A stretch of 64,000 bases of DNA from Candidatus Moraniibacteriota bacterium (GTDB lineage Bacteria; Patescibacteriota; Minisyncoccia; Moranbacterales; UBA9337). Made by a program: the position numbers and the translations under genes. The stretch is from NCBI GenBank assembly GCA_049287345.1, contig JBAQFQ010000010.1, positions 7,795-71,794 of the forward strand. Reading direction: 5' to 3'. This document shows positions 3,197-58,153 of this stretch, piece by piece. Position 1 is the stretch's first letter. Each line of letters opens with the position of its first letter. A model generated the notes under the pieces. That model had not been told where the DNA came from and made no database searches. It worked only from the letters and a program-made list of their open reading frames with translations.

Positions 3197-4870
3197 ATGG
3201 AATATAATCAAAATCATTTAGAATTAATTATTCAAGCTGCCAAATTACCTTTTAAAAATCCAGAAAAATTCCTAGATTTTAAAAAGAAATTTTGCGGTGA
3301 GCACAAAATTCCCCAACCAACTAACGCTGATTTGCGAGAAATTTATAATATATTGGTCTTGAATAAAAAAATTAAAAATAGCCCCATCCTAGAAAAAGCG
3401 ATGCTTTCTAGAGCGATTCGTACTCAGTCAGGTGTAGCAGTGGTAGCTGTCCTCACTAAGCCATCTACTTGTCCAGGAAAGTGCATCTTTTGTCCAACTG
3501 AAAAAGACATGCCCAAAAGCTATCTTTCCAATGAGCCGGCTGTTATGCGAGCCATCATGAATAAATTTGATGCTTACAATCAGGTACAAAGTCGCTTAAA
3601 TGCCCTGGAGCTAAATGGACATTCTACTGAAAAAATTGAGCTCATTGTAATGGGCGGAACCTTTTCCTATTTCCCCAAAGCTTATCAAAAAAAATTCATC
3701 ACTGACTGTTTTCGCGGTGCCAATGATTATCCTAGACATGAAAAAAAGAGCTCTCGGGATGTCATCTCGAGCGTAGCGAATGCGGAGTCGAGAGATCTAA
3801 GGTTATCAACAGAACAAAAGAAAAATGAAACTGCCAAACATCGAATTGTCGGTTTAACTTTGGAAACTCGACCTGACTATATAGATGAAAAAGAAATTAT
3901 AAATTTTAGAAATCTGGGATGTACGCGGGTAGAATTAGGAGTGCAATCCATTTATGACGATGTTTTAATTAAAAATAATCGTGGACATCTCGTAGATAAA
4001 ACCATTATTGCCACTAAATTGCTTAAAGATGCTGGTTTTAAAATTAACTACCATATGATGCCGGGACTCCTTGGCTCAACACTTACCAAGGATTTTAAAA
4101 TGTTTCAAGAACTTTTTACTAACTCAAACTTTCAACCGGATATGCTAAAAATATATCCTACGGTCGTCACTAAAAACTCACAACTCTATACTATCTGGAA
4201 AAATGGCCAGTACAAAGCCCTTACCGATAAAGAATTCGCTAAATTAATCATTAAAATAAAAAATGAAACCATTGTCCCCTACACTCGCATTCAAAGACTC
4301 ATTCGAGATGTACCGATGCCCTCCATTGAGGCTGGACCGACGGTTTCTAATTTAAGGCAGATAATTGAAAAAGAAACTACTTGCCCATGTATTCGCTGTA
4401 GAGAAATTAAAGGTGAATATAAACTTGATGACGAGATAATCCTCGATAGAATTAACTATGACGCTTCAGATGGCAAAGAAATTTTCCTTCAATTCATCTC
4501 CCCTGATAAGAAAAAATTATACTCCCTTTTGCGACTACGCATCCCATCCTCAGTTTGTCATCTCGAGCGCAGCGAATGCGGAGTCGAGAGATCTAAAATA
4601 AAAAAAATAGAAATGATCCCTGCCCTTAAAAACTCCGCCATTATCCGAGAAGTGCACACTTACGGAAAGCTCACCAACATCAATCAAATAGACAAAAGCT
4701 CCGCTCAGCATATCGGCCTTGGCAAAAAACTTATCCTCGAAGCTGAAAAAATTGCTCGCGATGAATTTGGGCTTAAAAAAATTGCCGTTATTTCTGGTGT
4801 AGGAGTGAGAAATTATTATCGAAAAAATGGATATAGACTGAGGGATAGCTATATGGTGAAAAATTTATAA
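3197..4870 (+). CDS. elp3: Elp3-family radical SAM/GNAT protein (tRNA wobble-uridine modification, Elp3-like)
   Basis: Radical SAM cysteine motif CPGKCIFC, GLTLETRPDY, GCTRVELGVQS, and a C-terminal GNAT fold (ISGVGVRNYYRKNGY). Carries two in-frame copies of a 39-nt repeat. Confidence 0.8.
   Translation: MEYNQNHLELIIQAAKLPFKNPEKFLDFKKKFCGEHKIPQPTNADLREIYNILVLNKKIKNSPILEKAMLSRAIRTQSGVAVVAVLTKPSTCPGKCIFCPTEKDMPKSYLSNEPAVMRAIMNKFDAYNQVQSRLNALELNGHSTEKIELIVMGGTFSYFPKAYQKKFITDCFRGANDYPRHEKKSSRDVISSVANAESRDLRLSTEQKKNETAKHRIVGLTLETRPDYIDEKEIINFRNLGCTRVELGVQSIYDDVLIKNNRGHLVDKTIIATKLLKDAGFKINYHMMPGLLGSTLTKDFKMFQELFTNSNFQPDMLKIYPTVVTKNSQLYTIWKNGQYKALTDKEFAKLIIKIKNETIVPYTRIQRLIRDVPMPSIEAGPTVSNLRQIIEKETTCPCIRCREIKGEYKLDDEIILDRINYDASDGKEIFLQFISPDKKKLYSLLRLRIPSSVCHLERSECGVERSKIKKIEMIPALKNSAIIREVHTYGKLTNINQIDKSSAQHIGLGKKLILEAEKIARDEFGLKKIAVISGVGVRNYYRKNGYRLRDSYMVKNL
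3761..3799. repeat. 39-nt GTCAT element, copy A, inside the elp3 CDS
   Basis: gtcatctcgagcgtagcgaatgcggagtcgagagatcta; near-identical copy at 4557-4595. Confidence 0.85.
4557..4595. repeat. 39-nt GTCAT element, copy B, inside the elp3 CDS and read in a different frame from copy A
   Basis: gtcatctcgagcgcagcgaatgcggagtcgagagatcta; one mismatch to copy A. Confidence 0.85.
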
Positions 4871-4897
4871 TCGTAGAAACAGGGCACTGCCCTGCTC
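4871..4897. repeat. Conserved hairpin element tcgtagaaaCAGGGCactGCCCTGctc (GGCACTGCC apex) immediately after the elp3 stop
   Basis: 7-bp stem with 3-nt loop. Near-identical copy at 16873-16900 after the prfA stop. No U-tract. Confidence 0.7.
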
Positions 4898-4974
4898 TCC
4901 AGCTAACAAAAAATGTCAAAATTCCAATTTCAAATACCAAATAAATTTTAAATTTCTAAATGACTAAATAAAAG

Positions 4975-5095
4975 ACTGTCATTGCGAGGAGGTACTCCGA
5001 CGTGGCAATCTCCTTTATTGCACTCAAAGCTCGCGATTTGTCATTTCGACTAAATAAATTTCTGTACTCGGAAATTTACGCATGGAGAAATCTCA
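4975..5095. repeat. Compound intergenic GTCAT-type repeat region (TGTCATTGCGAGG... and TGTCATTTCGACT...)
   Basis: 5037-5095 shares both ends (tgtcatttcgact..ataaatttc.gtactcg.aaat ... gaaatctcaaa) with 55198-55290. Confidence 0.7.
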
Positions 5096-5189
5096 AATAC
5101 TTATAATAAAAAATAACAAATCTACAAAAACCATTATGCCGCATCTCCGCGATAGCAGAAATGCAAAACAATGATAAAGATAAAATTTA

Positions 5190-5231
5190 AAACCACCGAA
5201 AAGCGCTGCTCCGCTCTCGGTGGGTTTTTTA
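5190..5231. terminator. Bidirectional rho-independent terminator
   Basis: Stem ACCACCGA...TCGGTGG with an A-run upstream and a T-run downstream. Sits after the stop of the minus-strand 5242..6276 gene. Confidence 0.7.
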
Positions 5232-5241
5232 GAAACTATTT

Positions 5242-6276
5242 CTATTTTTGTTGAGATACATGGGGACGCATTAACATGCACTGCAATTGAGTATTTATCA
5301 TTGCAGCCACAATTTTCATACGACACTGTTCATTGTGATTCTTGAAGTTGCCATCGATAGAATCAATGGAGGACCATGAAGGTAGCGAATTTCTTACCGA
5401 CAAAACGAGCGCCAAATCCTGAGCATCTTTAAATTTATATTCAAGACCTTGGAAGTTTTGCACATTTCCCGCTCTCCAAATTCTAACATCATTGGAGTAA
5501 TAATCGGCGCTTCTAATGTTGGTCTTATCCAAGTTTTCTCCGTGTGTTATGCGAGCATAAACAGGTATTCCGCAATAATCACCAACACGGAATTCTTTCC
5601 GACCGCTTTCTTTGTAGGCACCAATAATTCCATCAGTCACTTCACCTTTTCCATTAATAGTAATATCTGGCAATGATATTTTTAGCTGATCAATCATGTG
5701 AGAAAAATCAATTATTTGATCATTGCTGTTACTTTCACATCTGCCCGAAAGAGGTATCCAAGATGATATAGATTCCATGAAAAGTTGAGGGAGAAGCATG
5801 CTATCCAGATTAGCTCTCATGGATTCTATGGCAAACATCCCGCTTTTATGTTCACCCTCTAGTTTTATCCCGAGACTATCTCCAATTTTCATAATATTGA
5901 AGACTGATTTATTGGCGGACACTTCAAATGTTGCTCTATCTTTTTTTAAAACAATTATGGAAAAGATATCACTCTTTGAAATATCGCCCGATATCGAGCT
6001 CAACTTCCACAAAAAATCATCCTCATCTTTTACCCCACCCTTCTCTTTCCGCATATATTTAAACCATTCTACTAAATACTTCGCGGTAAATATCGTTAGA
6101 GTAATTTCAAAATCACTCCTTCTTTCTCCCTCACTTTTCCGACTATCGCCTAAGAAAAAATTAGGAATATAGAAAGGGTACCTTCTCTCTGCCGTAGCTT
6201 TAAAACCAACCCTGGCGAACGTTGAATCTAGAGAGAAAAAATTTGGCTCTTTTGATAATAATTCAGATTTGTTCAT
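5242..6276 (-). CDS. Hypothetical protein (344 aa), no recognisable family
   Basis: Long ORF; ATG at 6276 preceded by GGAGG. The track start at 6366 is upstream and is not the ATG. Somewhat higher GC than its neighbours. Confidence 0.6.
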   Translation of the reverse strand: MNKSELLSKEPNFFSLDSTFARVGFKATAERRYPFYIPNFFLGDSRKSEGERRSDFEITLTIFTAKYLVEWFKYMRKEKGGVKDEDDFLWKLSSISGDISKSDIFSIIVLKKDRATFEVSANKSVFNIMKIGDSLGIKLEGEHKSGMFAIESMRANLDSMLLPQLFMESISSWIPLSGRCESNSNDQIIDFSHMIDQLKISLPDITINGKGEVTDGIIGAYKESGRKEFRVGDYCGIPVYARITHGENLDKTNIRSADYYSNDVRIWRAGNVQNFQGLEYKFKDAQDLALVLSVRNSLPSWSSIDSIDGNFKNHNEQCRMKIVAAMINTQLQCMLMRPHVSQQK

Positions 6277-6559
6277 GGTAACCTCCAAATAAAAAGAACT
6301 TGTTTTTGATAGCTCGTAAGCTATTCCGCCAGACGTATCCGGCAGGACAAAGCAGGGATATCCCACCTTACCTCTTGATGTACATTAATATATGCACCAT
6401 AAGCTAGGCATGATATTTGATTATTAAATTTATACCCGAAGACACTAAAAGTCAAATAAAATCTAGCTAAATTAGATTAGTTTATGTTAAAATATAATTA
6501 ATAAGGTAATCTATCATCAGCAATCAAACATTAACTAAATAAAAATTAATCTCAACTCT

Positions 6560-6958
6560 ATGCAAAAAATAATCATTGCCTCCGGGCCGGTTATCATCGA
6601 GGATAACAAAATATTATTAGATATATCAGGAGATGACAATTTCTGGAAATTTTGCGGAGGAAAAATGAAAGATCTAGAAAACCTTCGAGAAACCGCAACT
6701 AGGAGAGCTCAGGAGGAACTAGGAATCAAAATTGAAATTTTAGATGAAAATCCTTTCCTACTCTACACTATCAAAGAAGCTCCCGAGGGCAATATTGATG
6801 TCGTCTTAGTTCATTATTTAGCTAAAAGAATTGGGAAGATAGTTCCTGGTGAAGATATTCAAGAGTGGAAATGGATTGCCATCGAAAATCTAAAAAACGA
6901 AAATCTCGCCCCTAATATAATGCCGACATTGACTCATTTTAATTTTATAAAAAAATAA
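6560..6958 (+). CDS. NUDIX hydrolase
   Basis: Nudix box GGKMKDLENLRETATRRAQEELGI. Confidence 0.8.
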   Translation: MQKIIIASGPVIIEDNKILLDISGDDNFWKFCGGKMKDLENLRETATRRAQEELGIKIEILDENPFLLYTIKEAPEGNIDVVLVHYLAKRIGKIVPGEDIQEWKWIAIENLKNENLAPNIMPTLTHFNFIKK

Positions 6959-6992
6959 TCTTCCAAAAAAATCAACTTCAGAAGACATAAAT

Positions 6993-7028
6993 AAAACACT
7001 TCAATATATCGATATATTGAAGTGTTTT
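6993..7028. terminator. Perfect 36-nt palindrome (16-bp AT-rich stem) downstream of the NUDIX gene; terminator or operator
   Basis: aaaacacttcaatatatcgatatattgaagtgtttt is its own reverse complement. Confidence 0.5.
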
Positions 7029-7334
7029 AAATTTAATTATTAAATATTGAATGAGAATTGAGTATTGGATATTGGAAATTAAAGTATAAATTAAGGATAA
7101 CATCTCCAGAGAAACCCACTCTTTCTATCACTTAACGGATACTGTCGAAAAATAACGCTTATTATTTTTCTTGCCATAAACCCCCTATTCTGCTAAACTA
7201 ATGGTAACTTGTTCGTGCATCTTTTCGTTTAACTAATAAATAAGTTTAGTACGCGGTCGAAACAAGATAGTAAAATACAATCAATTGATTATTCGTAAAT
7301 AATATTTATAAATAATCAAAGAAAATTTAGTATT

Positions 7335-9936: not shown

Positions 9937-9964
9937 AATATAAATTCACTACTAAATACTGCTA

Positions 9965-10068
9965 AAAGGTATTAGCCCCGGAGCAAGCCCTGGAATCTAC
10001 TTTCAGCAAGCTGCGGAGAATTTACTCAAAACGAGCTCGTCTACCGAAGCCTGGGCGTAAGTAGACTA
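9965..10068. repeat. About 100-nt conserved intergenic element, copy 1 (candidate ncRNA or REP-like element)
   Basis: About 85 percent identical to 12306-12411; contains the perfect palindrome ACGAGCTCGT and GCAAGC..GCAAGCTGC. Partial third copy at 22308-22378. Confidence 0.7.
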
Positions 10069-10692
10069 AATATTTCCTCGATTAATTAACGGCACAAAGG
10101 TAAAACCCGGGTACTCCTCTTCATAAAAATCATTTTCTCCTCTTTTTTCTAAATAATGGAGATAATTATAGACTGGTATAACCATCTTGCCACCTATTCT
10201 TAACTGATCCTTGAGCTCCTGAGGAACCTCTGTCGCTGAAGCGGACACTAAAATTCTATCATAAGGAGCCCTAGCAGCGTAACCCAGACTTCCATCCATA
10301 TTATAAAACTCTGCCACCTCCTTATTAATTTTTTTAATTTTACGTAAATTTTTTCTCCCCAAATCACACAATTCTTTAACTCTCTCAATGGACATAACTT
10401 TACCCTTTTCTCCAACGATATAAGCCAACAGGGCCGTGGTCCATCCAGAGCCACTACCAATATCCAGGATTTTTTGATTTTCCTGCGGATCAAGTAATTC
10501 CAACATGATTGCCACGGTGGTAGGCTGAGAAATTAGCTGCCCATAACCAATTGGCAAAGGAATATCAGCACCGGCACTTAATTCTAAATCTGAAGTAACA
10601 AAATCAACCCTATCAACATTAGCAAAGGATTCTATAATATGACTAGATCTCAAATAGCCATCTCGCATTAAATCATTGGTTAATCTATTCAT
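10066..10692 (-). CDS. pcm: Protein-L-isoaspartate O-methyltransferase
   Basis: DIGSGSGW motif I, LISQP; ATG at 10692 (the track start at 10698 is TTG). Confidence 0.85.
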   Translation of the reverse strand: MNRLTNDLMRDGYLRSSHIIESFANVDRVDFVTSDLELSAGADIPLPIGYGQLISQPTTVAIMLELLDPQENQKILDIGSGSGWTTALLAYIVGEKGKVMSIERVKELCDLGRKNLRKIKKINKEVAEFYNMDGSLGYAARAPYDRILVSASATEVPQELKDQLRIGGKMVIPVYNYLHYLEKRGENDFYEEEYPGFTFVPLINRGNI

Positions 10693-12263: not shown

Positions 12264-12305
12264 TTTTATTTTTTTGTTTATCCCCGATTAAATATTTTAA
12301 TTACA

Positions 12306-12411
12306 GGTTATCAACCCCAGGGGCTTGCCCCGAGCCCTACTTTCAACAAGCTGCAGGGAATTTACTCAAAACGAGCTCGTCTGCCGAAGCTTGGGCGTAG
12401 GTAGATTTAAC
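12306..12411. repeat. About 100-nt conserved intergenic element, copy 2
   Basis: See 9965-10068. Confidence 0.7.
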
Positions 12412-22283: not shown

Positions 22284-22307
22284 ATTCGTAAAATTACTCC
22301 CAATTAA

Positions 22308-22378
22308 AAGGTATTGACCACTGGGCAAGCCCTAGGCTCTACATGCGGCAAGCTGCAAAGAATTTACCCAAGGGGAAA
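22308..22378. repeat. Divergent partial copy 3 of the roughly 100-nt intergenic element
   Basis: AAAAGGTATTGACC...GCAAGCCCT.GGCTCTAC...GCAAGCTGCAAAGAATTTACCCAA aligns with copies 1 and 2. Confidence 0.55.
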
Positions 22379-55197: not shown

Positions 55198-55290
55198 GTG
55201 TCATTTCGACTGGATAAATTTCCGTACTCGAAAATTCAGAAATGGACCGCGTGTCGCCTTAGCTTTAGCGGTGGCACAGAAATCTCAAAC
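55198..55290. repeat. GTCAT-type repeat element (TGTCATTTCGACTGGATAAATTTCCGTACTCGAAAATT...GAAATCTCAAAC), long variant
   Basis: Shares both ends with 5037-5095 but carries an extra internal segment of about 35 nt. Confidence 0.7.
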
Positions 55291-57959: not shown

Positions 57960-58038
57960 TTGGTTTATGAAAATTATCTATTATAATTATATTTACTTTA
58001 TCTCCCTTGAAAATTCCTACATTGCACTACAATTAGAG

Positions 58039-58153
58039 CTGTCATCCCAGAAAATAGAATTTCTTAGCGAAGTCATGAGCGATAGAAATTCATTTATGTG
58101 GGATCTCATTCCGAAGTCTGAGATCCTGAATCAAGTTCAGGATGACAATATTA
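58039..58153. repeat. Inverted-repeat-bounded multi-hairpin element (TGTCATCC...GGATGACA) in the alaS upstream region
   Basis: Outer inverted repeat of 8 nt; inner hairpins GGATCTCA-ttccgaagtc-TGAGATCC and CCTGAA-tcaag-TTCAGG. Confidence 0.65.

Follow-up and report, generated by a model that had tools for sequence, protein, structure and literature searches.

Hairpin repeats bearing a CGTC tag were defined by Di Nocera, De Gregorio & Rocco (2013; BMC Genomics 14:522, PMC3733652) as CGTC-tagged palindromic repeats (CGTC REPs), in which the tag is often TGTC or CCTC, AT comprises the first two stem positions, and a 3-nt tail with the consensus CCA follows. Their stems are of 8-9 bp and their loops of 4-5 nt, with other loop lengths noted for some families, and their dimers are mostly HH (tags outside) and often heterodimeric (PMC3733652). 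Neisseria dRS3 and two Rickettsia palindromic elements (RPEs) of Rickettsia conorii, RPE-4 and RPE-6, are members of this class (PMC3733652). CGTC REPs were found inside genes with the reading frame kept, notably in repair genes and those for tRNA synthetases, and some open reading frames (ORFs) carried two; no transposase is known for them, and the five phyla covered did not include the Candidate Phyla Radiation (CPR) (PMC3733652). Here, we analyzed a 64,000-nt stretch of contig JBAQFQ010000010.1 of a Candidatus Moraniibacteriota bacterium (hereafter the window), in which a 39-nt repeat (the 39-mer) occurs twice inside the gene for the tRNA modification enzyme Elp3.

More recently, Chenal et al. 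(2025; Nat Commun 16:2388, PMC11893778) described the repeats NTS and Ssn-related motifs (SRM), which flank genes for ~94-aa GIY-YIG proteins (Ssn); the usual layout is repeat-ssn-repeat, and the partner family is CDD cd10448. NTS reads CGTC-ATTCCCGCG..GCGGGAAT-C, with CGTCATTCCCGCG..GCGGGAATC as the Neisseria version, and the SRM string, HGTCWYN(0-2)YYVSBRHN(0-5)WNVSBRGN(0-2)RNCYNB, is based on 29 genomes representing 4 phyla (PMC11893778). Binding of the hairpin by Ssn is restricted to single-stranded DNA (ssDNA), which is cut a few nt upstream; cleavage requires the 3 nt that precede the palindrome, and binding requires the C that follows it (PMC11893778). Intragenic copies and Patescibacteria are both unmentioned in that study (PMC11893778).

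As detailed below, we regard the 39-mer as probably a dispersed, non-autonomous hairpin repeat of the (C/T)GTC-tagged superfamily that comprises CGTC REPs, dRS3/NTS, RPE-4/-6, and SRM, two copies of which were fixed in loops of Elp3 and which may act as an ssDNA hairpin recognized by an Ssn-type nuclease.

Two copies of the 39-mer in permissive loops of Elp3

The initial annotation had placed the 39-mer twice in an Elp3-like coding sequence (CDS), one mismatch apart and in two reading frames, and our analysis agreed on the positions, the intact ORF, and the frames. The 39-mer, GTCATCTCGAGCG(T/C)AGCGAATGCGGAGTCGAGAGATCTA, had exactly two matches in the window, both on the + strand (0 matches in 100 shuffles).

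3197..4870, + strand: CDS of Elp3, a radical-SAM/GNAT tRNA U34 modification enzyme of 557 aa (ORF; homology to Elp3)
3761..3799, + strand: copy 1 of the TGTC-tagged hairpin repeat, CTCGAG type, in frame 0, encoding VISSVANAESRDL (residues 189-201)
4557..4595, + strand: copy 2 of the same repeat, in frame +1, encoding CHLERSECGVERS (residues 454-466)

The two copies, both singletons in the sense orientation, differ at position 14 only (T versus C); with T before and A after each, the stretch common to both amounts to 41 nt, and the T of the copy 1 tag is at 3760. The 557-aa ORF encloses both copies and stays intact, and ...DVISSVANAESRDL... and ...VCHLERSECGVERSK... in its translation show that the two copies are read in frames that differ. 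As read from the sequence, the third sense frame of the 39-mer is closed by TAG in the T variant and by ATC-TAA at the 3' end. The ORF survives owing to the length of the copies, 13 codons each, and to the lack of stop codons in two of their three sense frames; each copy uses one of these two frames, and thus we regard the encoded peptides as by-products of a DNA element.

The identity of the host gene is clear. An NCBI protein from a Candidatus Moranbacteria metagenome-assembled genome (MAG), P0001, is identical to the window protein, named Elp3, and bears PF04055 and PF16199, and solved Elp3 structures were matched by the ORF product at E=3e-110. The in-gene pair is not an assembly artefact, because the same insertions were found at the same positions in the independent assemblies L001, L002, and L003. 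An intron, an intein, and translational bypass were set aside, given the open reading frame maintained across the inserts, their length of 39 nt, and the lack of any signatures of such features.

In the 39-mer, the TGTC tag is unpaired and is followed by a stem with AT at its start and AT at its end, and then by the C plus a short tail (CTA). The outer stem, ATCTCGA paired with TCGAGAGAT, has 7 bp and a bulge of 2 nt, and the 15 nt between its arms form a small hairpin of their own of 2-3 bp (GC-GAAT-GC). The TGTCAT 5' end and the ATCT(C/A) 3' end are common to all of the copies in the window, and the stem bases beside these ends covary (ATCTC/GAGAT, ATTGC/GCAAT, ATTTC/GAAAT, ATCCC/GGGAT, and ATCCT/AGGAT).

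Both sites had been expected to be lineage-specific insertions falling in surface loops, and the orthologues and structures bore this out. The two segments are insertions relative to archaeal Elp3 (6IAZ) and are absent also in the Dehalococcoides and eukaryotic Elp3 structures. In an AlphaFold2 model based on 64 orthologues, with a mean predicted local distance difference test score (pLDDT) of 85.9 and a predicted template modeling score of 0.87, the sole segments with pLDDT<50 were residues 183-198 and 461-469, which match the element-encoded stretches. The same two positions are the main length-variable regions among 120 orthologues, and most of the Elp3 orthologues possess no element at either site. 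Both copies are therefore in-frame insertions at lineage-specific, permissive positions, as are those of the RPE type.

The motif GTC-AT(stem)...AT-C was sought in the Elp3 loci of the window, of three relatives, and of 80 metagenome contigs (84 loci in all). There were 21 in-gene matches against 4.5 expected, and the 13 convincing ones were confined to residues 183-194 or 453-461. These convincing matches represented the stem families ATTCCGG, ATTCCCG, ATCCC, ATTGC, ATTCT, and ATCTC, occurred in both orientations, and included some dimers with the tags outside (L125, L134, and L194). In a distance tree of Elp3, the carriers were scattered and most of the orthologues were empty, which points to repeated gains of the elements in Elp3, judging from the sequences compared. 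Site 2 of other Moranbacteria harbors unrelated perfect palindromes (L139, L146, L132, L156, L154, and L142). The two loops of Elp3 collect such elements, either through targeting or just because no other loops tolerate inserts; it is conceivable that they are true insertion targets, more than the sole tolerated positions.

Apart from the tagged motif, further short inserts in Moranbacteria Elp3 at residues ~412, ~436, ~455-468, and ~502 look like translated palindromes of unrelated families. They were seen in P0005, P0016, P0017, P0021, P0023, P0006, and P0009, as well as L123, L132, L139, L146, L154, and L156; examples are LPAxxxxLQAG (at two different sites), PPFKGGGWEG, and the perfect inverted repeat GGAGGCTCGACCTCC-ATTAT-GGAGGTCGAGCCTCC.

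Conservation among relatives and dispersal beyond Elp3

Three relatives were compared with the window at the DNA level. L001 is 95% identical in nucleotides; its site-2 copy matches the window at 36/39 positions with the 3' stem broken, and at site 1 the element is absent and an unalignable replacement patch of ~80 nt is found instead. L002 is 76% identical (52% at third codon positions), and its site 2 is empty. The site-1 copy of L002 is at the same site and in the same frame, and is identical to window site 1 at 38/39 and to window site 2 at 39/39 positions. L003, 78% identical, has an element at each of the two sites, equal in position and length to that of the window, with 35/39 matches at site 1, where the frame is the same as well, and 27/39 at site 2. 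The element can thus be much better conserved than the host gene, though not every copy is; such a pattern is consistent with a DNA element of which some copies are renewed or kept under constraint and others decay. The proposal in the initial annotation that conservation is on the nucleotides and not on the peptide is upheld by the two frames, the low pLDDT of the encoded peptides, and the 38/39 identity against 52% at third positions, but it does not extend to the decaying site-2 copies of L001 and L003. Target-site duplications and clean empty sites were looked for in the relatives and none was found, the flanks being too diverged.

The 39-mer is not private to Elp3. The same 39-nt architecture, with 5-7 substitutions, was found at no fewer than eight unrelated intergenic, non-Elp3 loci in other Moranbacteria MAGs, and all 8 intergenic CTCGAG-type copies of Moranbacteria were paired with an inverted TTCGAC-type partner, tags outward. 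The stem pattern GTCATCTCGAG-N(6-36)-GTCGAGAGATC, for which one genome per species was scanned, is present at 118 or more loci in a wide range of phyla, with hosts from Bacteroidales, Clostridia, Bifidobacterium, Planctomycetes, Acidobacteria, Verrucomicrobia, Chloroflexota, spirochaetes, Proteobacteria, and several groups of Patescibacteria. Among the matches listed, C or T preceded GTC in most of the pan-bacterial ones. Altogether, these loci speak for a dispersed element, as had been supposed at the outset, over a duplication private to the gene.

The repeat was also detected in frame in clearly genuine genes other than Elp3 in other phyla, which were named from their sequences without a family search. 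CTCGAG-type repeats reside in leucyl-tRNA synthetase (L113 and L094), 6-phosphogluconate dehydrogenase (L041), chorismate synthase (L005), PrmC (L048, Berkelbacteria), and UvrA (L098), and the recurring peptides encoded by them include VISSERSESRDL and DLSTS..ARDD. Because these in-frame copies in other genes match the 2013 report, the Elp3 case appears to be typical of the class on the basis of the sequences.

The window itself comprises additional members. GTCATYKCGA occurs 5 times against 0.18 expected, and we recognized 7 convincing copies of the superfamily in the 64 kb, or 9 if the tRNA-linked hairpins are counted. A looser scan gave 11 matches against 3.6 expected, so that about four of them are noise. 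A filter on closure in the minimum free energy structure was not used for motif detection, as it missed the window's own copies. The intergenic elements anticipated near 4975-5095 and 55198-55290 are indeed present, at 4978-5013, 5040-5095, and 55200-55287.

4978..5013, + strand: intergenic repeat, TGTCAT-TGCGAG...GCAATCTCC (superfamily signature)
5040..5095, + strand: intergenic repeat of the TTCGAC type (signature; DNA fold z = -2.74)
55200..55287, + strand: intergenic TTCGAC-type repeat with an extra internal hairpin, 83% identical to 5034-5086
58041..58108, + strand: intergenic repeat TGTCAT-CCCA...TGGGATCTCA, left member of a dimer with the tags outside (signature)
58120..58147, - strand: short repeat TGTCATCCTGAACTTGATTCAGGATCTC, right member of the dimer (signature)
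589-618 and 691-720, + strand: two TGTCATTACTCG...CGAGCG hairpins, each joined to a second copy of the tRNA-Ile 5' half (repeat search)

In other genomes, CTCGAG-type repeats usually form dimers with the TTCGAC type, and the partner member of the L022 dimer is nearly identical to the repeat at 5040..5095. The inverted pair at 58038-58150 folds as DNA with z = -3.99. In Rfam searches of the whole window at the gathering threshold and of 3600-5300 at E<=1, only tRNAs and two chance snoRNA-like matches were found. A full-text literature search for GTCATTGCGAG returned unrelated primer sequences only.

The surroundings of the 4978/5040 pair differ between the window and L001. The window has 2.2 kb at 4969-7187 where L001 has 126 nt, with homology ending at ~4969 and resuming at 7188, and the breakpoint lies directly at the first repeat of the pair. 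The segment contains two hairpin repeats, a 374-aa ORF without a Pfam match, and a NUDIX-like ORF.

GIY-YIG genes, tRNA-linked hairpins, and strand

Targeted tblastn searches revealed small GIY-YIG genes flanked by CTCGAG(+)/TTCGAC(-) repeats in L049, L057, L029, and L121, and related repeat types flank small GIY-YIG genes in the Patescibacteria L037 and L167. The Elp3-bearing relatives L003, L125, and L127 also possess small GIY-YIG genes. The small GIY-YIG proteins matched PF01541 alone in Pfam and nothing specific in NCBIfam, and their nearest PDB entries were UPF0213 proteins. All-against-all clustering of the ORFs at 118 repeat loci recovered no enriched neighbor family beyond ABC ATPases; the link to GIY-YIG genes emerged from the targeted searches alone. 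Tandem hairpin arrays with a period of ~75-330 nt and two alternating stem types were observed in L072 (6775-7323), L062 (6789-6918), L029 (550-2402), and L057 (101-420), some of which adjoin a GIY-YIG gene.

The hairpins linked to tRNA genes form a further group. Two tandem ~102-nt units, each with a tRNA 5' half plus a TGTCATTACTCG..CGAGCG hairpin, lie beside tRNA-Ile(GAT) at 463-745 of the window, and the anticodon arm of this tRNA itself reads GTCAT on this strand. Such tRNA-half/hairpin units appear as a six-copy array in L003 (6250-7850). The same genome has two GIY-YIG genes for 86-87-aa proteins, each exactly between an intact tRNA gene (Met or Ile) and a hybrid partial copy, and the same GIY-YIG/tRNA-Ile junction was seen in L125 (1-160). 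Judged by sequence, this looks like a GIY-YIG cassette targeting the anticodon arms of tRNAs.

Other repeats of the window were noted as well. A 106-nt tandem duplication (946-1172), with units 99% identical, extends into the 3' portion of tRNA-Leu (1155-1239), and a partial tRNA copy is thus found beside the intact gene. A family of ~70-100-nt repeats (66-82% identical) is found at 9963-10070, 12303-12410, and 22305-22371; they are GC-richer than their surroundings and have no Rfam match.

The GC skew is negative across the whole window (-0.13 to -0.36), which makes the + strand C-rich and the lagging strand. The GTC-tagged strand is on + in 6/7 hairpins (8/9 with the tRNA-linked ones), numbers too small for a firm conclusion. 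With + as the lagging strand, the tagged strand, which Ssn would cut, would be placed off the lagging-strand template.

Weighing the explanations and comparison with known systems

Several observations weigh against the 39-mer being a dispersed repeat of the tagged superfamily. The exact loop variant GCGAATGCGGA was seen in Elp3 only, namely twice in the window and in L001 and L002, and the orthologous copies at site 2 of L001 and L003 decay at or above the background rate. No clean pair of filled and empty alleles was found, as L001 differs by the ~80-nt patch and not by a 39-nt indel. The published SRM string matches neither Elp3 copy, the loop being too long and one stem position different, and a tblastn search of the 64-kb window with GIY-YIG proteins gave no match. 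Finally, folding had been suggested as a check in the initial annotation, and it failed to single out the 39-mer: the single hairpin is energetically ordinary, with no exceptional stability against shuffles as DNA (z = -0.07 and -1.25) or as RNA (-0.27 and -1.62). Thermodynamics was thus not used as evidence for the single 39-mer.

We consider it unlikely that the elements are kept mainly as RNA hairpins in the Elp3 mRNA, serving stability, RNase processing, or translational pausing, with no system acting at the DNA level. Many REPs were argued to be transcribed and to act as RNA (PMC3733652), both Elp3 copies are in the sense orientation, and the + strand (mRNA sense) folds slightly better than the - strand. 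However, the RNA z values given above are weak, the element has no Rfam match, copies in the minus orientation and dimers occupy the same Elp3 sites in other lineages, and the stem is lost in the decaying copies of L001 and L003, whose Elp3 genes are nonetheless intact. In addition, the RNA form of NTS was not bound by SsnA (PMC11893778).

A private internal duplication or gene conversion within Elp3, with no dispersed element behind the pair, is quite improbable. It would agree with the restriction of the exact loop variant to Elp3 genes, and the window copies being 1 nt apart, against 35/39 and 27/39 for the L003 copies, suggests homogenization between the sites in the window lineage. Nevertheless, the 39-nt architecture recurs at the intergenic Moranbacteria loci and the stem pattern across phyla, other stem families of the motif fill the same two loops in other clades, and the two copies differ in frame and have unrelated flanks.

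Selection at the protein level, with the inserted peptides as an adaptive gain of Elp3, is very hard to sustain: site 1 is kept in three diverged orthologues with similar peptides (VISS(V/A)ANAESRDL / VISNGENAESRDL), but one DNA sequence is read in two frames into unrelated peptides, the pLDDT is <50 in both segments, most of the orthologues lack them, including the 95% identical L001 at site 1, and the conservation reaches synonymous positions. Equally remote is a local origin of the palindromes at a hairpin-prone hotspot by template switching or snap-back synthesis, with the likeness to the class incidental, which would suit the many unrelated perfect palindromes at site 2 in other Moranbacteria, but not the asymmetric, non-palindromic tag and tail (TGTC...C-TA), which are not produced by local palindrome formation, the stem matching dispersed copies elsewhere base for base, or the flanking Elp3 sequence, in which no donor template is visible.

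We thus favor the dispersed, tagged hairpin repeat. By analogy with the published systems, the element would act, and be maintained, as an ssDNA hairpin recognized by a small Ssn-type GIY-YIG nuclease, and its spread, or the homogenization between copies, would depend on such a system. Two copies became fixed in Elp3 at the two hypervariable loops, in which other lineages carry other stem variants and unrelated palindromes; selection would remove insertions at other positions of Elp3. For this genome, we infer the ssDNA/Ssn mechanism from the literature and from the association in other genomes. It is a doubtful, though conceivable, extension that the tagged hairpins of Patescibacteria are working sites of an Ssn-type ssDNA nuclease system shaping recombination or transformation, as NTS in Neisseria. 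Such a role would fit L001 differing from the window exactly at repeats (the site-1 patch and the 2.2-kb indel at the 4978/5040 pair), the site-1 copy being near-identical across genes with saturated synonymous sites, and the cleavable strand lying off the lagging-strand template in 6/7 of the window copies.

The genomes of CPR bacteria are tiny, and repeats are thought to be scarce there. Our results extend a known repeat class, and by implication its GIY-YIG ssDNA-nuclease partner, to this group. Part of the length variation in a conserved CPR enzyme is repeat-derived, and the repeats account for odd peptides such as 'VISS..SRDL', 'CHLERS..', '..FHGND', and '..ARDD' in the proteins of CPR and other MAGs; masking of such repeats is advisable in annotation and alignment pipelines. 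The two Elp3 loops, which seem to gain hairpin inserts independently in many lineages, offer a handy natural system for studying how the class moves.

Among the described systems, CGTC REPs are the closest. All of the window copies, including the two in Elp3, have the TGTC tag ahead of the stem, and GTC-AT...AT-C was found in every copy. The 3-nt tail reads C-TA or C-TC, though the published consensus is CCA. Dimers of two stem types with the tags outside are shared as well, as seen in the intergenic copies of Moranbacteria, the 58041/58120 pair of the window, and the in-gene dimers of L125, L134, and L194. Likewise shared are in-gene copies that keep the frame, sometimes two per ORF and often in nucleic-acid-handling enzymes. 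On the other hand, the 39-mer departs from the 8-9 bp stem and 4-5 nt loop: it has a stem of 7 bp plus a bulge, a 15-nt composite loop, and a CTA/CTC tail, and its host belongs to Patescibacteria.

With NTS/SRM, the repeats share the GTC-palindrome-C frame, the bases critical to Ssn (GTC before and C after the palindrome) being invariant in all of the copies, as well as the position beside small single-domain GIY-YIG genes (in other genomes) and the wide phylogenetic spread. They differ in that the 39-mer does not conform to the SRM string and that no ssn gene lies in the 64-kb window. None of the other GTCAT elements tested matched the string either, and its sole match in the window was the tRNA-linked hairpin at 691-720.

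GTAG-tagged REPs/REPINs are similar in being short tagged hairpins, in forming inverted dimers, and in flanking a gene for an ssDNA-acting enzyme, but their tag is GTAG and this enzyme is an HUH/Y1 RAYT transposase instead of a GIY-YIG nuclease; no RAYT was seen here. RPE-1, reportedly described by Ogata et al. in 2000 and 2002, likewise comprises palindromic repeats that reside in frame in genes that remain functional; they are considered to be selfish DNA and are tolerated in regions at the protein surface. RPE-1 is of ~100-150 bp, several times longer than the 39-mer. Among the Rickettsia elements, RPE-4 and RPE-6 alone were assigned to the CGTC class.

The initial annotation had likened the 39-mer to RPEs and taken such insertions to be undescribed for this kind of genome. 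The likeness turned out to be closer than supposed, as RPE-4 and RPE-6 belong to the same class, but the class and its in-frame habit had been published. Our literature search found no report joining this repeat class with Patescibacteria/CPR, and its presence in Patescibacteria appears to be unreported. The 39-mer is thus not a new kind of element, since the class, the in-frame habit, and the likely protein partner (Ssn; PMC11893778) have all been described; the novelty lies in the host group, in the composite loop of the element, and in two loops of Elp3 being used recurrently.

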